NCBI GenBank assembly: GCA_963664815.2
Contig: CAXXHB010000003.1
Span: 2,240,001-2,304,000 of the forward strand
From: Spirochaetota bacterium
Lineage (GTDB): Bacteria; Spirochaetota; UBA4802; UBA5550
Direction of reading: 5' to 3'
Length of the DNA: 64,000 bases
Positions within the stretch are counted from its first letter, which is position 1. Each line of letters opens with the position of its first letter. Below the pieces are notes generated by a model. The model was not told the DNA's origin. It made no database searches and saw only the letters and a program-made list of their open reading frames with translations. The translations under genes and the position numbers were made by a program. This document shows, piece after piece, positions 18,816-30,742 of this stretch.

Positions 18816-18994
18816 TCCGCATTTATATGTTATGCTTTAACCTTGAAGTATTTAATAAAAGCCTATAATCACCGGGAAAAATCATATAATCCATAAGCTA
18901 CTCCTCACCAGGTAACCACATATGTTCCACCATGGGGCCTTATGACGCGATATTGGCAGTTATAAGTTTTTCGTTAAATAAAATAAAATAAAAT

Positions 18995-19093
18995 AAAAAA
19001 CCCGGCATTAAACCGGGCAACAGAGGAGGAGCTTTACAGGAAGATTTTTTTATTCTTTACCATTTATATTGCATTACATTCATGCTCTTTATA
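18995..19093 (-). ncRNA. Candidate small RNA with anti-Shine-Dalgarno motif
   Basis: TTGACA (19127-19122), 16 bp, TGnTATTAT promoter; UCCUCCUC; terminator CCCGG-tttaatg-CCGGG-TTTTTT with no minus-strand gene to explain it. Confidence 0.55.
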
Positions 19094-19593
19094 CGTGACA
19101 TAATATCAAACACTTTTAAAATGTCAATTATATAACTATACTCCATAAAAAAAATTACTTTTTTCATAAAAAATTACCGTTAATTCTATAAATAGAAATT
19201 GTTTTTAAAGAATCCCGGGTGGAACTTTTTATTAATTTAATGGGCCGTAATATATCAGCGACAGCATAACAATGAAATTTTTTACATAGTCTGTATATAG
19301 CCCGTTATTTATAAACTCATTTTATTATTTACTGATGCAGTTTGTACCGGATTTCATTATAATTTTTTAACGAAAAGAGTTTGACTTTATACAGGATTGT
19401 AATATTTAATTTTTTGTACCTAAGTTTATATATTTGATTTACCGGTTAATCAGTCCAAGATGTTTGGTAATATTCAGTACGAATAACACTGAGAAGTACT
19501 TATGGAATTAATACATTTTTTTACATAATCCTGACTCATTCTTTATAAGCATTTACTATCTTGAAAATCTGTAAATAAAACAGGAGTACAAGA

Positions 19594-22500
19594 ATGGCAG
19601 CTATTAATATTTTTAAGAAAGGAATATGGGTTTTAATATCGTTTATTGCCGCTGTTTCTCTTTCGGTAATTGCAGGATTCCTGAACCCCGGAGAAAAGGT
19701 TAATGCAATCTGGCTTATTGTTGCTACTGTATGTATATTCGTAATTACTTACAGATTTTACGCTGCATTTCTTGCCTCAAAGGTTCTGGTTTTTGATGAA
19801 ACAAAAAAAATGCCCTCTGAAACAGTGAATGACGGTGTAGATTACTACCCCATGAATAAATGGGTTCTGTTCGGGCATCATTTCGCAGCTATTGCCGGGG
19901 CCGGACCTCTTATAGGGCCGACGCTTGCCGCACAGTTCGGTTATCTTCCCGGGTTTCTCTGGATACTTGTAGGGGCGACTCTTGCAGGAGCCGTCCATGA
20001 CATGGTCATTCTGGCGGCATCAGCACGGCATAACGGACAATCACTTGCCCAGATTGTAAGAGATGAGATAGGAACCTTAAGCGGATTTGTTCTTGCCCTG
20101 ATCATTATCTTCAATGTTGTAGTTGCTGTCGCCGGAGCCGCACTCTCTGTCGTTAATTCACTCAACATGAACTCCTGGGGAACCTTTACACTCCTTATTA
20201 CTTTCCCGATTGCAATCTTTATGGGAATCTATATGCACTTCCTCAGAAAGGGTAAAATCATGGAGGTCAGCATTATTGGCGCATTGCTGCTTCTTGTTGC
20301 AGTATTCCTCGGAAGCCGCATGCCGGGATCTTCATTAGCTCCATTTTTTACAATTGATAAAAACAGACTTATTATTTACCTTGGTATCCTCTGCTTCATA
20401 TCCTCTGCCCTGCCCATATGGCTTCTTCTGGTACCCAGGGATTATATTTCAGCATACCTTAAAGTCGGAACATTTCTTCTGCTGGCTGTTGCCATAGCCA
20501 TAAACATGCCGGTTCTGGAGATGCCGAAAACGACACAGTATATAGCAGGCGGGGGACCAATCGTCCCGGGAACACTCTTCCCTTTTCTTTTTATTACGAT
20601 AGCCTGCGGGGCAATTTCAGGATTTCACGGACTTATATCCTCCGGCACTACGCCGAAAATGATCAAATCAGAAAAGGATATACCCCTTATAGGTTTCGGT
20701 TCAATGCTCGTTGAGGGGTTTGTTGCCGTCATAGCCCTTATTGCAGCATCCATACTCATACCTGGCGATTATTTTGCCATGAACACAAAACTCTCACCCG
20801 AGATACTCTCTTCAATGGGATTTCCCATATCTAAAATACAGGAACTATCACAGACAATAGGACTGCAGCTTCAGGGAAGACCGGGTGGAGCAGTCTCCAT
20901 AGCTGCCGGAATGTCGGTACTTCTGTCATCTCTTTTCGGTGGAAAAGCGTCACTGCCCTACTGGTATAATTATTCACTGATGTTCATCGCGCTTTTCATT
21001 CTTACACTTGTAGATGCCGGAACCAGGGTCGGCCGTTTTATGCTTCAGGAGATAGGAGGGACAATCTATAAGCCCTTTTCAAATCACCAGAATGAGTTTA
21101 ATATTATCATTACAAGTCTTATCATAGTTCTTATGTGGTGTTACCTGCTTTTTACAGGAAACATCTCCACCATATGGCCGATGTTCGGCATCGCCAACCA
21201 GATCCTTGCGGCTACCGCCCTTGGTGTAGGCACCACGCTTTTAATCAAGTCTGACAAGGTTAAATATATCTGGATAACTGTACTGCCGATGTTGTTCATG
21301 CTTATAACTTCATACATCGCGGCATGGCAGCTTGTATTTATATTTTTTGAAAATGCCTCAAAATCCCCGAATCCTTCAGATGCCTTTCATCTGAGGATGA
21401 ATGCATCGCTTATTATTTTTATAGCAGTTCTCGGGATTATCGTTATTGCAGATCTCTTTTACAAATGGCACGGTTATTTTAAAACCGGTACAGATATAAA
21501 CCTTAAGGATCTTTTTATCCGGCTTAAAAACAATATTATCAGCAGAATCCCGAAAAGGACCAGCATCCTTGCAAAGCTGCTGTCATTTCTTATTGCCACA
21601 CTTATCATCAGTTTCGCAGTAATTTACTTTATTTTTAACGTTTCATTTTCAGGATACAGCGAATATGTAATGAAGAAATCTGAAGCACTTCTTATGGAAA
21701 AATACAGCTACATGCTGCAGAACAACACCGAAATGGCAGTGTCTCTTGTGTCTTCAATATATAAACAGAAGAATATATCCGAAGCGCAGAAACTCAAACT
21801 CTCACAGGAATTGGTCAGACAGCTCCGCTATGGCAACGACGGTTATTACTATGCTTATGAAAACAGTACCGGAAAAAACCTTATACATGGTTTGAATAAA
21901 AATCTTGAAGGGAAAAACCTCTGGAATATGCAGGACCCTGCCGGTAAACAGTATATTATAAGGGAGCTTGACGATGTGGCAAAAAACAATAAAGTTTTTC
22001 TTGAATTTTTCTGGAGCAAGCCCGGCGTGGAAGGTATTTACCCGAAACTTGGAACTGCTATGAACGTTCCCGGAACCAATATGTGGCTTGGTACCGGCGC
22101 TTATATTGACGATATAAACAAAAGTAAAACCGAGTTAAGGGCAGCCATTAATAAAATAACCGCCGGGACAAGGCTCAACTTTCTTCTGGGATTTCTTATT
22201 ATTACACCAATCGCGATAATGATTATTATATTTCTTTCAAGAAATATCACTAATCCCATCAAGCACCTTATTACCTCCACCGAAGCGGTATCATCGGGGA
22301 ATTATAACGTAAAAATTGATGCCAGGACTCATGACGAGATAGGCAAACTTGCTGTTACCTTTAACAGCATGACTGTTACCCTGAAGGATCTCACCGAAAA
22401 CCTTGAGCTTAAAGTGGAGGAAAGGACCTCTGAGCTTCAGGAAACCATGAACAAGCTCAACGAAATGAATACTATACTCGGTTCACTTTCAGATAAGCTG

Positions 22501-23691
22501 TCAAAATATATTCCTCCTCAGCTACGGGAGATGATTTTCAACGGAAAGCAGGAGGCAAAGATCGCCTCTTCAAGAAAGAAACTTACAGTATTTTTTTCAG
22601 ATATCAAGAATTTCACACAGACAACAGAGAGAATGGAAACCGAATCACTTACGGATCTTCTCAACAGTTACCTCAACGAAATGTCACAGATTGCAATAAA
22701 GCATGGCGCTACAATAGATAAATTCGTCGGTGATGCCATTCTTGTATTTTTCGGCGATCCTGAAACAAGGGGTGAGCAGAAAGATGCTGTAGCCGCCGTT
22801 GATATGGCGCTGGAGATGAAGTCACGGCTGAGATATTTACAGACCCAGTGGTATGAGAAAGGTATAGTGGAACCATTCCATGTCCGCATGGGTATAAATA
22901 CAGGATACTGTACTGTGGGTAATTTCGGCAGCGATGCAAGAATGTCATATACCATTATCGGTTCTCAGGTAAACCTGGCCAGCAGGCTTGAAAGCTCATC
23001 AGAACCGGACAACGTGCTTATTTCTCACGAAACATATTCACTTGTTTCACATAAATACTACTGCCTTGAGAAAGAGGGTATCATGGTTAAGGGGATAGAC
23101 CACCCCATTAAAACGTACCAGGTTGTTGATTCACATGAGAATCTTAAAAAACAAAACAGGCTGATCGAAGAACGTACAACAGGATTCAATATCAGCCTTG
23201 ACCTTGAAAACATGAGAACAGAAAACAGGGGAAAGGCACGCAGGGTACTAACAGAAGCTCTTCAGCTGCTTGGCGAAGCGGAAGGGGAACCGCTTAATAT
23301 GATTGTTTCCAGTGTAATTAAAACAGTAAAAAAAGAGACCATATCATTAAACAGCGGATTTTCAGTGGATACCGGTGATTTGATATTTCCGGGTGACGCA
23401 TCCACCCTTTCCGCAATACTTCATGATCTGGTTTATAATGCAGTTCTTCTTTCGGGAGATGAAGGCAATATAACAATAAGCGCCGAAGCCGAAAATGGTT
23501 CAACAGTGATACGGATAACAGATTCAGGTCAATGGCTTGACAGGGACGATATTAAAAGCCTTTTTGCCGATGGAGATACACCAGGGAGTTTATCAGGCAT
23601 TAAAGCAGGAATCAGAAAACTTAACGGACACATATCCTCAAAACGCAACCATGAAGGGGGTAATATATTTATTCTGACAATACCCGGCTGA
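19594..23691 (+). CDS. cstA: CstA transporter fused to Cache_2-HAMP-class III adenylyl cyclase-degenerate HATPase_c
   Basis: GHHFAAIAGAGPLIGP, IACGAISGFH, DAGTR and IWPMFGIANQ (CstA); LRYG..GYYY...WSKPG...PK...GTGAY (Cache_2); DEIGKLA..FN.M (HAMP); FFSDIKNFT, KFVGDA and GSQVNLASRLE (cyclase); LVYNA/ITDSG tail. Confidence 0.88.
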   Translation: MAAINIFKKGIWVLISFIAAVSLSVIAGFLNPGEKVNAIWLIVATVCIFVITYRFYAAFLASKVLVFDETKKMPSETVNDGVDYYPMNKWVLFGHHFAAIAGAGPLIGPTLAAQFGYLPGFLWILVGATLAGAVHDMVILAASARHNGQSLAQIVRDEIGTLSGFVLALIIIFNVVVAVAGAALSVVNSLNMNSWGTFTLLITFPIAIFMGIYMHFLRKGKIMEVSIIGALLLLVAVFLGSRMPGSSLAPFFTIDKNRLIIYLGILCFISSALPIWLLLVPRDYISAYLKVGTFLLLAVAIAINMPVLEMPKTTQYIAGGGPIVPGTLFPFLFITIACGAISGFHGLISSGTTPKMIKSEKDIPLIGFGSMLVEGFVAVIALIAASILIPGDYFAMNTKLSPEILSSMGFPISKIQELSQTIGLQLQGRPGGAVSIAAGMSVLLSSLFGGKASLPYWYNYSLMFIALFILTLVDAGTRVGRFMLQEIGGTIYKPFSNHQNEFNIIITSLIIVLMWCYLLFTGNISTIWPMFGIANQILAATALGVGTTLLIKSDKVKYIWITVLPMLFMLITSYIAAWQLVFIFFENASKSPNPSDAFHLRMNASLIIFIAVLGIIVIADLFYKWHGYFKTGTDINLKDLFIRLKNNIISRIPKRTSILAKLLSFLIATLIISFAVIYFIFNVSFSGYSEYVMKKSEALLMEKYSYMLQNNTEMAVSLVSSIYKQKNISEAQKLKLSQELVRQLRYGNDGYYYAYENSTGKNLIHGLNKNLEGKNLWNMQDPAGKQYIIRELDDVAKNNKVFLEFFWSKPGVEGIYPKLGTAMNVPGTNMWLGTGAYIDDINKSKTELRAAINKITAGTRLNFLLGFLIITPIAIMIIIFLSRNITNPIKHLITSTEAVSSGNYNVKIDARTHDEIGKLAVTFNSMTVTLKDLTENLELKVEERTSELQETMNKLNEMNTILGSLSDKLSKYIPPQLREMIFNGKQEAKIASSRKKLTVFFSDIKNFTQTTERMETESLTDLLNSYLNEMSQIAIKHGATIDKFVGDAILVFFGDPETRGEQKDAVAAVDMALEMKSRLRYLQTQWYEKGIVEPFHVRMGINTGYCTVGNFGSDARMSYTIIGSQVNLASRLESSSEPDNVLISHETYSLVSHKYYCLEKEGIMVKGIDHPIKTYQVVDSHENLKKQNRLIEERTTGFNISLDLENMRTENRGKARRVLTEALQLLGEAEGEPLNMIVSSVIKTVKKETISLNSGFSVDTGDLIFPGDASTLSAILHDLVYNAVLLSGDEGNITISAEAENGSTVIRITDSGQWLDRDDIKSLFADGDTPGSLSGIKAGIRKLNGHISSKRNHEGGNIFILTIPG

Positions 23692-27632: not shown

Positions 27633-28019
27633 ATGAAAAGAATTCTACTCTCAGGTATAACACTGTTTTTCTGTTTAACCGCATTATCTTTTTCCGCTGA
27701 TAACATTAAGACAGTTAATTATAATGATCTGCCAAACGGAGCAAAAGAGGTTATTACAAAGATAAAAGCGGGTTCCACAGAGTGGGCATTTGTCAAAAAC
27801 GACGGGGTTCGTTTCGGGAACCGGGAGAAACATCTTCCTGCTGACCATAATGTTTCATATAAAGAGTACACCGTCTGCACAGACAGAATGAACAAAGAGT
27901 TAAAAAAGGGGAAACGGCCCAACCGTGGTCCAAACCGTATAGTACATGATGTCAGCAACGATATCTACTACTACACTGATGATCACTACAGAACGTTCAG
28001 GAGAGTTGTATTTAAATAA
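27633..28019 (+). CDS. Secreted guanyl-specific ribonuclease (barnase/RNase Sa family)
   Basis: FGNREKHLP, YKEYTV, RGPNRIV, YYTDDHYRTF; signal peptide. Confidence 0.88.
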   Translation: MKRILLSGITLFFCLTALSFSADNIKTVNYNDLPNGAKEVITKIKAGSTEWAFVKNDGVRFGNREKHLPADHNVSYKEYTVCTDRMNKELKKGKRPNRGPNRIVHDVSNDIYYYTDDHYRTFRRVVFK

Positions 28020-28426
28020 TGAAAACCATTGAACAGCTGGTCAAGACCATAAGGGAAGGCTCCTTCACCCGCGGAAGTAAACTCATTGCAGAAGCAGAAG
28101 CCGGCGGAATTCATATTTTTTATTTCAGCGGTAAGTCAATTGCAGACGAAGAGAGTTTTTTCAATACTGCAAAAACCGTTATGCGGCTCCCAGGTTATTT
28201 CGGTTACAACTGGGATGCCTTCGAGGAATGCATCAATGACCTGAGCTGGATCCCGGCGCAGGGTTATATATTTATTTACGATAATACCTCTGTATTCTTT
28301 TCTAAGCATCCCAAAGATGCAGAGATATTAACCGGCATACTTGATGATGCCCGTAATAATTTCAGAGGGTCAGAAATATCATTTGAAGTTATCCTGGCGG
28401 ATGGAGATGATCTTTCAGCTGCATGA
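28019..28426 (+). CDS. Barstar family RNase inhibitor
   Basis: LPGYFGYNWDAFEECINDLSW; translationally coupled to the RNase (TAATG). Confidence 0.88.
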   Translation: MKTIEQLVKTIREGSFTRGSKLIAEAEAGGIHIFYFSGKSIADEESFFNTAKTVMRLPGYFGYNWDAFEECINDLSWIPAQGYIFIYDNTSVFFSKHPKDAEILTGILDDARNNFRGSEISFEVILADGDDLSAA

Positions 28427-28435
28427 AAGAGGCTT

Positions 28436-30742
28436 TCAGCCATGTTGACCATGCATATGTGTTAAAAACAGTTTACAGATCCCGGGATCAAACTGAATAC
28501 CTGCATTGCTCTCTATCTCCTTTAATGCATTTTCTGCAGATACAGCCCTGCGGTATGGCCTTTCAGTGGTCATTGCCGTATATGCGTCAGCAATGGCAAG
28601 AATTCTTGACTGAAGCGGGATATCAAGGGCTTTAATTCCCCTTGGGTAACCCCTGCCATCCCATCTTTCATGATGTGCCAGCACGTAATCGGCTAATTTC
28701 GCATACTCATTAACTGAAGATAATATTCTGTAACCATGCTCACTGTGACGCTTAACTTCATCAATGGCATACCCGCTTAAAGGCTTAGTACTGTTTAAAA
28801 TTTCTTCAGCTATGGCGATATTACCGATATCATGCATCATCCCCAGTGTCTTCAGTTCGAGTATCTCCTCCCCCCTTAAATTCATTTCTTTACCGATAAC
28901 AGCGCACAGTTCGCTTACTTTTTTAGCGTGAAGCTCTTCTCCGGGATTTTTACTGTATAATGTATTCTTTATAGTTTCTATAGTCTGGTGTTTTATAATA
29001 TTACTTTCAGAGAGTTTCTCTTTGTACATCAAATCTTCGGCCTGTTTGTAAATATCGGTTATATCCTGTTCATCGGATTCTTTGGCCGCAAGGCCGAAAG
29101 ATACCGAGACAGGCAGAATGCCGGCCTTTTCACCATGCATAGATATTTTAATCCGCCGGACAATAGTTTCAGCTGTAATTCTGTCAGCACCGGGCAGAAT
29201 AATTACAAATTCATCGCCGCCTGTTCTGGCAATGATATCATCCGAACGGCACTCTTTTTTTAAGACACCTGCCGCTTTCCGAAGAAGATTATCCCCGGCC
29301 AGATGTCCGAAAACATCATTTGTAAGCTTCAGTCCATTGACATCACCTACCACCAGCGTGATGGGTAGATTTCTTTTTGTATCAAGTCTCCGAAGCTCCT
29401 CCTCAAAAAACCTGTGGTTATACAGGCCTGTCAGGTGGTCATGGAATCCCAGATGGGCTATCTCCAGTGCGCTTTTAAGTTCCCTGTTTACTCTTTCCAG
29501 GTTAGTGTTTAAAATATTTATTCTGTCAGCAAGCGCAATAGAGAGAAGCACGGCTTCTATAACCGCGGCTATCTGAAAATTGTAGAAGGTAAAGTTATTA
29601 TAAGGAAGAACACTTTTAAATGTCAGTGAAAAGACTATTGTTCCGGCTAAAAAAACGAATGATGCCCATATATAAAACCTGGCATTCCTGTTTCCCCGTC
29701 TGAAAGCCGTTATTCCAGTAATCATTAATACAACAGGAACAACAAGTCCCATGGTTGTAAAATAATTAATAATCTTACTGTACTCAAACAGGAAAACGCC
29801 TGCAGATAATCCGAGTGAGACAATAATTAAAATATTAAGAATGGTGTCAATTACCGGCATAATCTTCCGTGTTGAGAGGAAAGTCTTTGCGAATAACATT
29901 GCAAATGCAGAGCTGACACCCAGAAAAAAGAGCGTTAAATATGTTGACACAACAGGATTCTGCCTGAAAAAGAACTCGGTCGTAAGCCGGTTCACTGCTG
30001 AGAAATACAATGTAATGGTTAAAAGATACAGCAGATAATAAAAACGCGACTTTTCCCTGAGGAATATACACAGAAAGAGGTTGTAAAGGAATAAACCTGT
30101 CATAACGCCATAGAACATCCCGAAGAGAATAAGCTGATAAAACAGTTTACTGTCCAGTTCATCTTTCTGAACAACTTTAAGCGGTATAAAATATGGTGAT
30201 TTTGATTCGACACGCAGATAAAATGTCGATGGTTCACGATCCAGCGCAGGGAGACTGAAAACCACATTTTTGTATACCAGTTCATTCAGTCCAAGAACCT
30301 TCAATGTCCCGCCTGACTGCCTGATCCATCCGTCTTTTCCGTATTTATCTTTTTTTACCGGGGTATATAAATCGGCGTAATAGACATATTGAGTACCCAT
30401 GTCAAGAAAGCGGGCAGTCCTGTCGGCTCCGCTTTCAATACCGGCAGACTGAAGAGTAAATCTTAACCAGAAGACCGATCTGCTGAGTCCAAGATTTATA
30501 TTTTCTTTTTTATGAGTGTAAAATTCACCATTATAGCTCCCGGAGCTGACCTCTGCAATACCAAGCTTTCCCTCCTTATCCTCAAGAATCTCAACATGCC
30601 TGCCAAGAGAAATACCAGGTGTTCCATTATCTATATTTACAGCATCCAGAGCCAGTGCGTTTTTCAAGGGGAATGTATATACAATCAGGTGGAAGGCAAT
30701 AATAACCTGTAATAATGAACGTGTATGGATAACTCTATTCAT
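28436..30742 (-). CDS. 7TM-DISM receptor-GGDEF-HD-GYP c-di-GMP enzyme
   Basis: DISMED2 (NLG.....FWLRF), 7 TM helices, GGDEF, HDIG, HHERWDGRGYP. Confidence 0.9.
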   Translation of the reverse strand: MNRVIHTRSLLQVIIAFHLIVYTFPLKNALALDAVNIDNGTPGISLGRHVEILEDKEGKLGIAEVSSGSYNGEFYTHKKENINLGLSRSVFWLRFTLQSAGIESGADRTARFLDMGTQYVYYADLYTPVKKDKYGKDGWIRQSGGTLKVLGLNELVYKNVVFSLPALDREPSTFYLRVESKSPYFIPLKVVQKDELDSKLFYQLILFGMFYGVMTGLFLYNLFLCIFLREKSRFYYLLYLLTITLYFSAVNRLTTEFFFRQNPVVSTYLTLFFLGVSSAFAMLFAKTFLSTRKIMPVIDTILNILIIVSLGLSAGVFLFEYSKIINYFTTMGLVVPVVLMITGITAFRRGNRNARFYIWASFVFLAGTIVFSLTFKSVLPYNNFTFYNFQIAAVIEAVLLSIALADRINILNTNLERVNRELKSALEIAHLGFHDHLTGLYNHRFFEEELRRLDTKRNLPITLVVGDVNGLKLTNDVFGHLAGDNLLRKAAGVLKKECRSDDIIARTGGDEFVIILPGADRITAETIVRRIKISMHGEKAGILPVSVSFGLAAKESDEQDITDIYKQAEDLMYKEKLSESNIIKHQTIETIKNTLYSKNPGEELHAKKVSELCAVIGKEMNLRGEEILELKTLGMMHDIGNIAIAEEILNSTKPLSGYAIDEVKRHSEHGYRILSSVNEYAKLADYVLAHHERWDGRGYPRGIKALDIPLQSRILAIADAYTAMTTERPYRRAVSAENALKEIESNAGIQFDPGICKLFLTHMHGQHG

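Follow-up and report, generated by a model that had tools for sequence, protein, structure and literature searches.

Links between nutrient uptake and signalling are usually studied with separate proteins or in the single fused family CbrA/CrbS, and the locus described here raises the question of whether a transporter, a sensor and an enzyme making cyclic AMP (cAMP) can be united in one polypeptide and, if so, what that polypeptide would read. The window, by which we mean the whole analysed stretch of 64,000 nucleotides from a Spirochaetota bacterium (assembly GCA_963664815.2, contig CAXXHB010000003.1), holds at 19594-23691 on the forward strand a single ATG-initiated frame of 1365 amino acids (aa) plus stop, with no internal stop codon. 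A preliminary description, made from the sequence alone, had reported this uninterrupted open reading frame (ORF) together with CstA, Cache_2, HAMP and cyclase domains, and Pfam places the domains in that order. Its domain list was incomplete, since a C-terminal HATPase_c domain (aa 1267-1364, Pfam 33.1 bits) had been overlooked. We take the protein to be a genuine fusion and, with our confidence evenly balanced, read it as a sensor of external pyruvate or another short carboxylate that would make cAMP while tethered to a CstA importer. The gene and its parts are as follows.

19582..19586, + strand: Shine-Dalgarno sequence AGGAG, inside the block ACAGGAGTA, 5' of the ATG and conserved in three copies
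19594..23691, + strand: whole gene, 1365 aa plus stop, spanned by contigs of two runs with no differences
19594..21468, + strand: CstA-family transporter module, aa 1-625 (Pfam CstA at 37-574, 657.1 bits), with about 16 membrane helices and both ends read as cytoplasmic
21469..21552, + strand: fusion linker, aa 626-653, basic and variable, with insertions and deletions among the aligned copies
21577..21633, + strand: TM17, an extra transmembrane helix (TM), aa 662-680, called from hydropathy and equivalent to TM1 of stand-alone sensor cyclases
21694..22128, + strand: predicted periplasmic sCache_2 domain, aa 701-845 (Pfam 109 bits), with pocket residues Y751, Y753, Y755, H765, F805, W807 and K818
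22180..22236, + strand: TM18, second membrane helix of the sensor, aa 863-881 (hydropathy peak 2.95)
22231..22386, + strand: HAMP domain, aa 880-931 (Pfam 50 bits)
22387..22569, + strand: helical coiled-coil connector from HAMP to cyclase, aa 932-992 (AlphaFold 2 (AF2) helices at aa 931-970 and 975-982)
22570..23124, + strand: predicted class III (IIIb, CyaB-like) adenylate cyclase, aa 993-1177 (Pfam Guanylate_cyc, 103 bits)
23125..23391, + strand: post-cyclase segment, aa 1178-1266, modelled by AF2 as two short strands and then a helical hairpin, without a conserved His
23392..23685, + strand: HATPase_c (GHKL) domain, aa 1267-1364 (Pfam 33.1 bits), with N1282, D1310 and G1312 kept and a degenerate G2 box

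We found three further proteins with this architecture. A search of the window's genome (5.2 Mb in three contigs) with the CstA model returned, about 1.8 Mb away on the same contig, another open frame of equal size. This paralogue, P0121, has 1366 aa and the same seven Pfam families and is 80% identical to the window copy over its full length (1088/1367). P0002, encoded on a 39.5-kb contig of another assembly, has 1367 aa and is 79% identical to the window copy at 100% coverage and 78% identical to P0121. The fourth fused copy comes from another genus of the same family, on contig C72 of the uncultured Leptospirales metagenome-assembled genome (MAG) G046, which is 77% complete with 6% contamination. 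In this MAG copy (loci L018/L023), one base is lost from an A-run at about aa 497 (near L018:1500-1530), which splits the gene into two frames, and bases are masked inside the HATPase_c domain. Among the findings that would count against it, the preliminary description had named separate genes in relatives together with a lack of other fusions; the two halves are indeed separate and non-adjacent in close relatives, but other fused examples exist.

The same description had proposed that the junction be checked against sequencing data, and contigs from two runs of two studies cover the whole gene, junction included, with no differences, although these may be the assembly's own source data; we therefore give them little weight and take the paralogue and the two copies from other assemblies as the true controls. 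A misassembly or sequencing error joining neighbouring genes, or a decaying pseudogene, could be suspected from the damaged MAG copy and from the possible origin of the best reads, yet we consider it highly improbable: two intact copies stand 1.8 Mb apart at 80% identity, an intact third protein from elsewhere has the identical junction, every domain appears to be under purifying selection, and the two runs agree across the junction. Chance is excluded because the Pfam scores are high and three further relatives have the full architecture. On this sequence evidence, we regard the fusion as a genuine single polypeptide and not a misassembly.

In two further runs, X4 and X5, the gene is represented by short fragments alone, which end at GATC sites and continue into unrelated sequence, and a protein named P0129 is 100% identical to aa 693-913 before continuing into unrelated G+C-rich sequence. 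Both look like chimeras from a ligation-based (Hi-C-like) library, and we read them as no evidence about the gene.

The start of the gene is marked by the AGGAG sequence 8-12 nt ahead of the ATG. When the sequences preceding the gene in the three copies available (window, paralogue and MAG) were aligned, this was the sole block common to them, with no conserved small ORF, and its retention in three copies supports the start codon of the fusion gene. Between aa 603 and 692 the window copy has no in-frame ATG, GTG or TTG, so a separately initiated sensor that includes the first membrane helix is unlikely here. The earlier claim of a Met-free linker thus holds for the window copy but fails as a general trait: codons for Met occur at 639 and 645 of the paralogue and in the linker of the MAG copy as well.

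How far does the fusion reach beyond these copies? A word-indexed search of 5.8 billion protein clusters, in which 8000 candidates of 750-2389 aa were scored, gave only two proteins with the full domain set among the best 120, the query and P0002. A HMMER search with aa 1-1200 against 1.84 billion representatives listed stand-alone sensor cyclases (772 and 729 bits) and then plain CstAs (at most 515 bits) after the query; two-module proteins would rank near the top of such a list, so the query's cluster is the sole one among the 150 best matches that spans both halves. P0121 is absent from the protein-cluster matches, and the collection may omit the proteins of the window's genome, which makes these counts of fused clusters lower bounds. 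A comparison of the CstA module with proteins of at least 1121 aa, where long proteins may crowd out relatives, gave six matches, namely two fusions, P0008 and P0271-P0273.

Six-frame genome searches, with the window's own genome counted, put the fused gene in 2 of the family's 64 genomes and in 2 of the order's 122. Metagenome contigs scanned with junction patterns and sensor-start patterns yielded no relative, and the pattern scan of genome contigs returned only the MAG copy, one stand-alone CstA and one weak Cache match. In full-text literature on CstA, transceptors and adenylate cyclases we found no described CstA-cyclase fusion, and none appeared in the protein libraries outside this one clade, in agreement with the preliminary statement that none had been described. 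Together, these searches suggest that the fusion is very rare and confined to a few uncultured Leptospirales. Such a narrow spread, four sequences and two genomes of one order, limits its general importance.

Both halves of the protein also exist on their own. Stand-alone CstAs, with open frames of 646-674 codons and 47-54% identity to aa 6-636, occur in eight genomes of the order (6 of 13 in family f6, 1 of 13 in family f2, and G062), and one more, at 58%, lies in a Thermodesulfovibrionales MAG. Stand-alone sCache_2-HAMP-cyclases that are 55-58% identical to aa ~651-1220 occur in five genomes of the fusion's own family, with 577 aa where the ORF was listed and open frames of 579-597 codons. 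At the protein level, the sensor-cyclase relatives of aa 651-1365 (P0122, P0123 and P0274-P0291) show 48-58% identity by BLASTP, and P0122 reaches 64% by HMMER. Five stand-alone sensor-cyclase loci had no CstA in their flanks and three stand-alone CstA loci had no sensor-cyclase part (mostly about 1.5 kb searched per side, 876 nt upstream at L019), and the two close halves did not occur together in any genome at E <= 1e-150.

In the alignment, stand-alone CstAs stop at YKW(Y/H)G(Y/F), corresponding to aa 623-628 of the fusion, and the stand-alone sensor cyclases P0122 and P0123 start (MK..ILGKL) at about aa 651. Between those two edges, the linkers of the four fusions have 24-28 residues, with insertions and deletions and little identity (46% in the paralogue and 14% in the MAG copy). 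Since the ends and starts of the stand-alone proteins coincide with the edges of the linker, the fusion arose from a complete CstA gene and a complete sensor-cyclase gene. Among the roughly 21 closest sensor-cyclase clusters listed, P0122 (737 aa) and P0274 (741 aa) end in HATPase_c, while P0123 and P0275-P0291 are without it; because these two stand-alone proteins carry the domain, it came with the sensor half.

A tree of the sensor-cyclase region (six rows, none dropped) groups the four fusions in one clade with 100/100 support against P0122 and P0123. Branching within the clade is unresolved, the copies being about equidistant at 78-80% overall identity. We read this as one single fusion event, and an old one. 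Between the window copy and the paralogue, synonymous sites are saturated (proportion of synonymous differences, pS, 0.72), and the proportion of nonsynonymous differences (pN) is 0.065 for CstA (pS 0.70), 0.067 for the cyclase, 0.107 for TM18 and HAMP, 0.136 for Cache, 0.24 for HATPase_c and 0.29 for the linker. By this comparison of sequences, every domain is under purifying selection.

The first 625 residues form a full CstA, as the preliminary description had stated. Their match to Pfam PF02554 (Transporter Classification 2.A.114) scores 657.1 bits against a cut-off of 27 and covers positions 1-558 of the 560 in the model. No sequence match to the module was found in the PDB at E <= 0.01, and the family has no solved structure. 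In an AF2 model of aa 1-900 (51-row alignment from database matches; mean predicted local distance difference test, pLDDT, 86.4), the pLDDT of ten-residue blocks is mostly above 90 and never below 88 through aa 630, and the module contains two broken helices, 89-115 and 328-349. Foldseek places it nearest to LeuT-fold/APC proteins (NKCC1, LeuT, LAT and CHT1), with target-normalised template-modelling scores (TMt) of 0.5-0.6 and E values of ~1e-5 to 1e-7; with a high root-mean-square deviation (rmsd), this modelled likeness is one of fold class only. We think it probable that the CstA module transports.

In the hydropathy profile, 16 segments precede aa 630 and two follow it (662-680 and 863-881); 18 helices are predicted for E. 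coli CstA and BtsT (PMC7730263). When 89-115 is counted among the membrane helices and 433-447 is assigned to a long outer loop, every strongly basic loop lies on the same side of the membrane: RKGK at 217-220, three Lys at 355-361 (loop 350-361), 478-493, 552-557 and the linker, where the loop 623-661 holds nine Lys or Arg. The CstA module modelled in this way would have 16 helices with both ends inside and a cytoplasmic linker. AF2 shows one continuous helix, 658-723, comprising TM17 and the N-terminal helix of the Cache domain, so that TM17 would lead the chain out to Cache and TM18 would return it to HAMP, as in the stand-alone sensors. The membrane topology is workable.

The other long CstA proteins carry enzymes. 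P0008 (1453 aa) has a C-terminal S9/DPP-IV-like peptidase and P0271-P0273 (1152 aa) a gamma-glutamyltranspeptidase, which is a periplasmic enzyme. These proteins resemble the window protein in their sequence of CstA, basic loop, extra helix and extracytoplasmic domain, and in P0008 and P0272, which acquired it independently, the loop with its one extra membrane helix stands ahead of the added enzyme as it does here. The added domain differs in kind, being an enzyme that would feed the transporter and not a signalling module; such CstA-peptidase fusions would be importers with their own periplasmic substrate-releasing enzyme. The window's genome also has a plain CstA-family frame of 557 codons (G000:C3:393935-395389, loci L003/L004), 31% identical to the fused module, with its Pfam match in two pieces.

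The sCache_2 domain sits between the two helices that follow the linker, and Foldseek aligns it with 2qhk/4exo at TMt 0.79. With aa 684-870 as query, the PDB gave four sequence matches at E up to 1, every one an sCache_2 chemoreceptor domain (2QHK, 4EXO, 4K08 and 5G4Y), at only about 31-32% identity, and 2QHK and 4EXO are one Vibrio parahaemolyticus domain deposited twice. The ligands held are pyruvate in 4EXO, acetate in 4K08 (Adeh_3718) and propionate in PscD (5G4Y), and PscD is reported to bind glycolate, acetate, propionate and pyruvate (PMC5062169). A preprint gives the 4EXO pocket as Y96, F98, H109, F148, W150 and K161, with His at position 109 in pyruvate binders and Leu in L-lactate binders; a Leu-to-His change enabled pyruvate binding and weakened lactate binding (bioRxiv 2025.02.11.637667). 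The Tyr that bonds the keto group is printed as Tyr70 (PMC5062169), which we read, from its position relative to PscD Asn94, as Y100 in the numbering of the preprint.

In the HMMER alignment, 4EXO Y96, F98, Y100, H109, F148, W150 and K161 correspond to Y751, Y753, Y755, H765, F805, W807 and K818 of the window protein. Of these 4EXO residues, Y96, F148 (or a Tyr in its place) and K161 bind the carboxylate, and F98 and W150 make up an aromatic sandwich. All seven pocket positions are kept, one of them (F98, here Y753) as a conservative swap to Tyr, and the pocket residues are also kept in P0121, P0002 and the MAG copy. The motifs quoted in the preliminary description were all located, DGYYYAYE at 749, LIHG at 763, FFWSKPG at 805 and YPKLG at 816 in the sensor and D1003, K1043, D1047, N1127 and R1131 in the cyclase. 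Of the NCBIfam sensor models, those of the chemoreceptor CtpM and the kinase MctS match best, both far below cut-off. The proposal that this Cache_2 is of the small-carboxylate type gains from its place in the sCache_2 group and from its histidine-type (pyruvate-type) pocket. Judged by these residues, a short carboxylate is a rather likely ligand, and for pyruvate itself we put the chance slightly under even.

The cyclase region is the closest to a known structure. Residues 990-1184 match the catalytic domain of Pseudomonas aeruginosa CyaB (3R5G) with 272 bits (E 3.6e-80). In an AF2 model of aa 930-1365 (45-row alignment, mean pLDDT 88.9), helices at model residues 2-41 and 46-53 make up the coiled-coil connector, and Foldseek aligns the cyclase with 3R5G at TMt 0.95, rmsd 1.2 A and 62% identity, with the same Lys/Thr pair and catalytic residues. 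Across all 45 cyclases aligned (the query and 44 picked matches), D1003, K1043, D1047, R1098, T1120, N1127 and R1131 do not vary. The cyclase is thus catalytically complete, as had been claimed, with both metal-binding Asp, the substrate-specifying Lys/Thr pair, the transition-state Asn and Arg (N1127 and R1131) and R1098. A Lys/Thr pair is that of an ATP-using class IIIb cyclase, and class III cyclases dimerise. Its residues make it very likely that the predicted enzyme makes cAMP. CyaB itself has a MASE2 membrane anchor, is without Cache, HAMP, CstA and HATPase_c, and is stimulated by bicarbonate. The genome of the window has 10 class III cyclase matches and 25 cNMP-binding (cyclic nucleoside monophosphate) matches, so receivers for cAMP would be plentiful.

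The HATPase_c domain exceeds its Pfam cut-off of 26.4 bits and scores higher in P0121 (47.7) and P0002 (35.7). It is also called by the Atlas feature search and by weak PDB sequence matches to kinase CA (catalytic and ATP-binding) domains, and AF2 models it as an alpha/beta domain. All four aligned sequences retain the Mg-binding N1282 as well as D1310 and G1312, which form the D-x-G of the G1 box. The Pfam scan of the protein gave no HisKA family. We considered SHENL at 1180-1184 as a kinase H-box and rejected it, since H1181 is Asn in the paralogue and Tyr in P0122; without HisKA and without a conserved His, we also rejected a histidine kinase identity despite the HATPase_c. From its kept residues, the domain may bind ATP as a regulatory input or act on a partner.

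Our preferred reading assigns the following steps to these parts. The sCache_2 domain would bind external pyruvate or a similar C2-C3 carboxylate and would be the primary signal input. Binding would be signalled through HAMP and the coiled coil to a homodimeric cyclase producing cAMP, with the ~25 cNMP-binding domains as possible receivers. The attached CstA module would import the same or a related substrate, and the covalent tie would fix a 1:1 ratio and bring sensing and uptake together in one place, the transporter at most modulating the cyclase.

Several findings weigh against this reading. The preliminary description had the CstA module importing a carboxylate. Against NCBIfam NF011590, the equivalog model of the pyruvate/H+ symporter CstA, the module scores 559.7 bits, below the cut-off of 1188, so its substrate is not assignable by equivalog even though it is a member of the family. 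The substrate could be peptides, since the score is below that cut-off, CstA has been linked to peptides, and the other long fusions are with peptidases. The fusion is seen in none of the seven other genomes of the same genus (73-97% complete), and it is thus dispensable. In the sensor, one pocket position carries the swap of F98 to Tyr, the F148 position is Tyr in the stand-alone relative P0122, and identical pockets can differ in affinity (PMC5062169). The role of HATPase_c is unexplained by the proposed steps, and the frameshift in the MAG copy is either an assembly error or real decay. Moreover, a poorly conserved linker modelled with low confidence argues against a precise mechanical link between the halves, and transport and kinase activities are described as largely independent in CbrA (PMC7096432). 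It is because of this CbrA analogy and the loose linker that we favour signalling driven by Cache, with uptake tethered to it, over a sensor of flux.

In a true flux sensor, the transport cycle of CstA would be a main input, passing from the last CstA helix through the linker and TM17 to HAMP, and cAMP would report the uptake rate, alone or together with the Cache signal. This would fit the retention of the fused state in four diverged lineages while synonymous sites became saturated, a linker whose length is held at 24-28 aa and whose basic character is kept, and the direct continuity of TM17 with the N-terminal Cache helix. Co-sensing by transporters is established elsewhere, in DctA-DcuS and LysP-CadC, and the SLC5 domain is reported to modulate autokinase activity in CbrA (PMC7096432). 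We still think it unlikely: the linker is the least conserved part (46% and 14% identity, pN 0.29), with pLDDT below 50 at 632-641 and 647-656, and the sensor cyclase is self-sufficient, existing alone in ~19 listed clusters at 52-58% identity, while four fused sequences are too few for a covariation signal between the halves. A combined form, in which Cache reads external pyruvate, the CstA cycle acts by way of helix 16, the linker and TM17 as a gate on that same HAMP-cyclase dimer, and HATPase_c adds a third, cytoplasmic input (ATP or energy state), appears equally unlikely. Should it be true, cAMP would encode how much of the sensed pyruvate is taken up, and the protein would give the CstA family its first role in signalling and bacteria their first transporter-receptor whose output is a cyclic nucleotide.

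The two halves might instead serve unrelated inputs, with CstA importing peptides or another substrate that Cache does not sense and the fusion serving only to co-express and co-localise two carbon-starvation functions. The lack of an equivalog match to the pyruvate symporter and the peptidases on all other CstA proteins of at least 1121 aa among the matches listed (four of six) point in this direction, as do CstA mutants of several species that are impaired in peptide use (PMC7730263). On the other hand, the family members with directly characterised transport, CstA and BtsT of E. coli, are pyruvate/H+ importers (PMC7730263), the Cache pocket is of the pyruvate type, and a sensed compound that is also the imported one is the simplest reason for selection to keep the tie; this leaves unrelated inputs somewhat less probable than a flux sensor. 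Least probable among the functional alternatives, in our view, is a CstA module that has lost transport and now either anchors the cyclase in the membrane or acts as its receptor. Snf3/Rgt2 and UhpC are examples of such non-transporting receptors, and the genome does hold a further, distantly related CstA (557 aa). Polytopic membrane anchors frequently act as the receptors of class III cyclases (PMC4821796). The CstA module, however, is the most conserved part of the protein, with 86-89% identity among the four copies and a pN of 0.065, and constraint on the transporter that equals or exceeds that on the enzyme argues against a decayed anchor. It also covers the full Pfam model, its AF2 model is a complete LeuT-like fold in which both broken helices are present, and the sensor, with two membrane helices of its own, needs no anchor.

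We know of nothing described that is like the CstA-sensor-cyclase fusion, and its kin are the bacterial transporter-sensor fusions, or transceptors; a 2026 preprint on the CbrA structure calls the CbrA-type family a rare transceptor (PMC13022988). CbrA, CrbS and RpuS, the SLC5-STAC kinases (PMC7096432, PMC13022988, PMC9100948), likewise place a LeuT-fold transporter N-terminal to a cytoplasmic signalling output and are linked to the sensing of carbon sources, with RpuS and CrbS concerned with pyruvate and acetate. The window protein differs from them in having a CstA (2.A.114) in place of SLC5 (SSS) and no STAC in Pfam, a class III cyclase with predicted cAMP output in place of a histidine kinase, and its own periplasmic ligand domain with two extra membrane helices, which gives two possible inputs. 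Membership in the SLC5-STAC family was therefore rejected, since Pfam finds neither SLC5 nor STAC, and the protein would be transceptor-like in its working only.

A second comparison is with the E. coli network of BtsS/BtsR, PyrS/PyrR, BtsT and CstA, where CstA importers are also tied to external pyruvate sensing and to cAMP, with cstA activated by cAMP-CRP (PMC7730263, PMC10653868). In that network, as described, sensor, transporter and cyclase are separate, sensing falls to 7TM kinases of the LytS type, and cAMP stands upstream of cstA, whereas the window protein unites all three, senses through Cache and would have cAMP as its product. Its sensor shares the fold and pocket, pyruvate-type His included, with sCache_2 chemoreceptors (2QHK/4EXO, 4K08, 5G4Y and McpP), but its output is a cyclase and not a chemoreceptor signalling domain. 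The stand-alone sCache_2-HAMP-cyclases of Leptospirales and metagenomes have the same domain order as aa 651-1365, are without CstA and are named only 'class 3 adenylate cyclase/HAMP'.

Set beside CbrA/CrbS, the window protein would be a second, independent solution to linking uptake and signalling, built from a CstA importer, a dedicated periplasmic sensor and a cAMP output. From its Cache pocket, the compound predicted to be sensed is of the class imported by the best-studied CstA proteins. The protein would turn round the textbook sequence, where cstA is activated by cAMP-CRP, and a transporter family without a solved structure would gain a signalling context. Since stand-alone versions of both halves occur in related genomes, they offer a clean natural experiment on whether the tie changes the response from concentration sensing to flux sensing.

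The gene stands alone in the window. The ~780 nt upstream of it (18816-19593) hold no ORF of at least 80 aa, and downstream, on the other strand, lie a 117-aa ORF of unknown function and a molybdopterin oxidoreductase. Between 18700 and 24400 there was no Rfam match at E <= 0.1, and promoter-like sites (20 against 18.4 expected) and terminator-like sites (8 against 4.9) were at chance level. No neighbouring gene is common to the window, paralogue and MAG loci.

Divergent from the paralogue, 340 nt from the start of the P0121 gene, is a gene for a 959-aa protein (L005:8669-11548, + strand, corresponding to G000:C3 ~486668-489547) with 7TMR-DISM_7TM, HisKA, HATPase_c, receiver and LytTR DNA-binding domains, that is, a kinase and a LytTR regulator in one chain. 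The arrangement is suggestive by analogy with E. coli, where a LytTR protein, BtsR, activates btsT, a gene of the CstA family (PMC10653868), and the 959-aa protein may regulate the paralogue. Elsewhere in the window, a barnase-family ribonuclease (128 aa) and a barstar-like inhibitor (135 aa) adjoin at 27633-28426 (+ strand). Finally, 28436-30742 (- strand), 5 kb from the fusion gene, encodes a 768-aa protein with 7TMR-DISMED2, 7TMR-DISM_7TM, GGDEF and HD (HD_5) domains.

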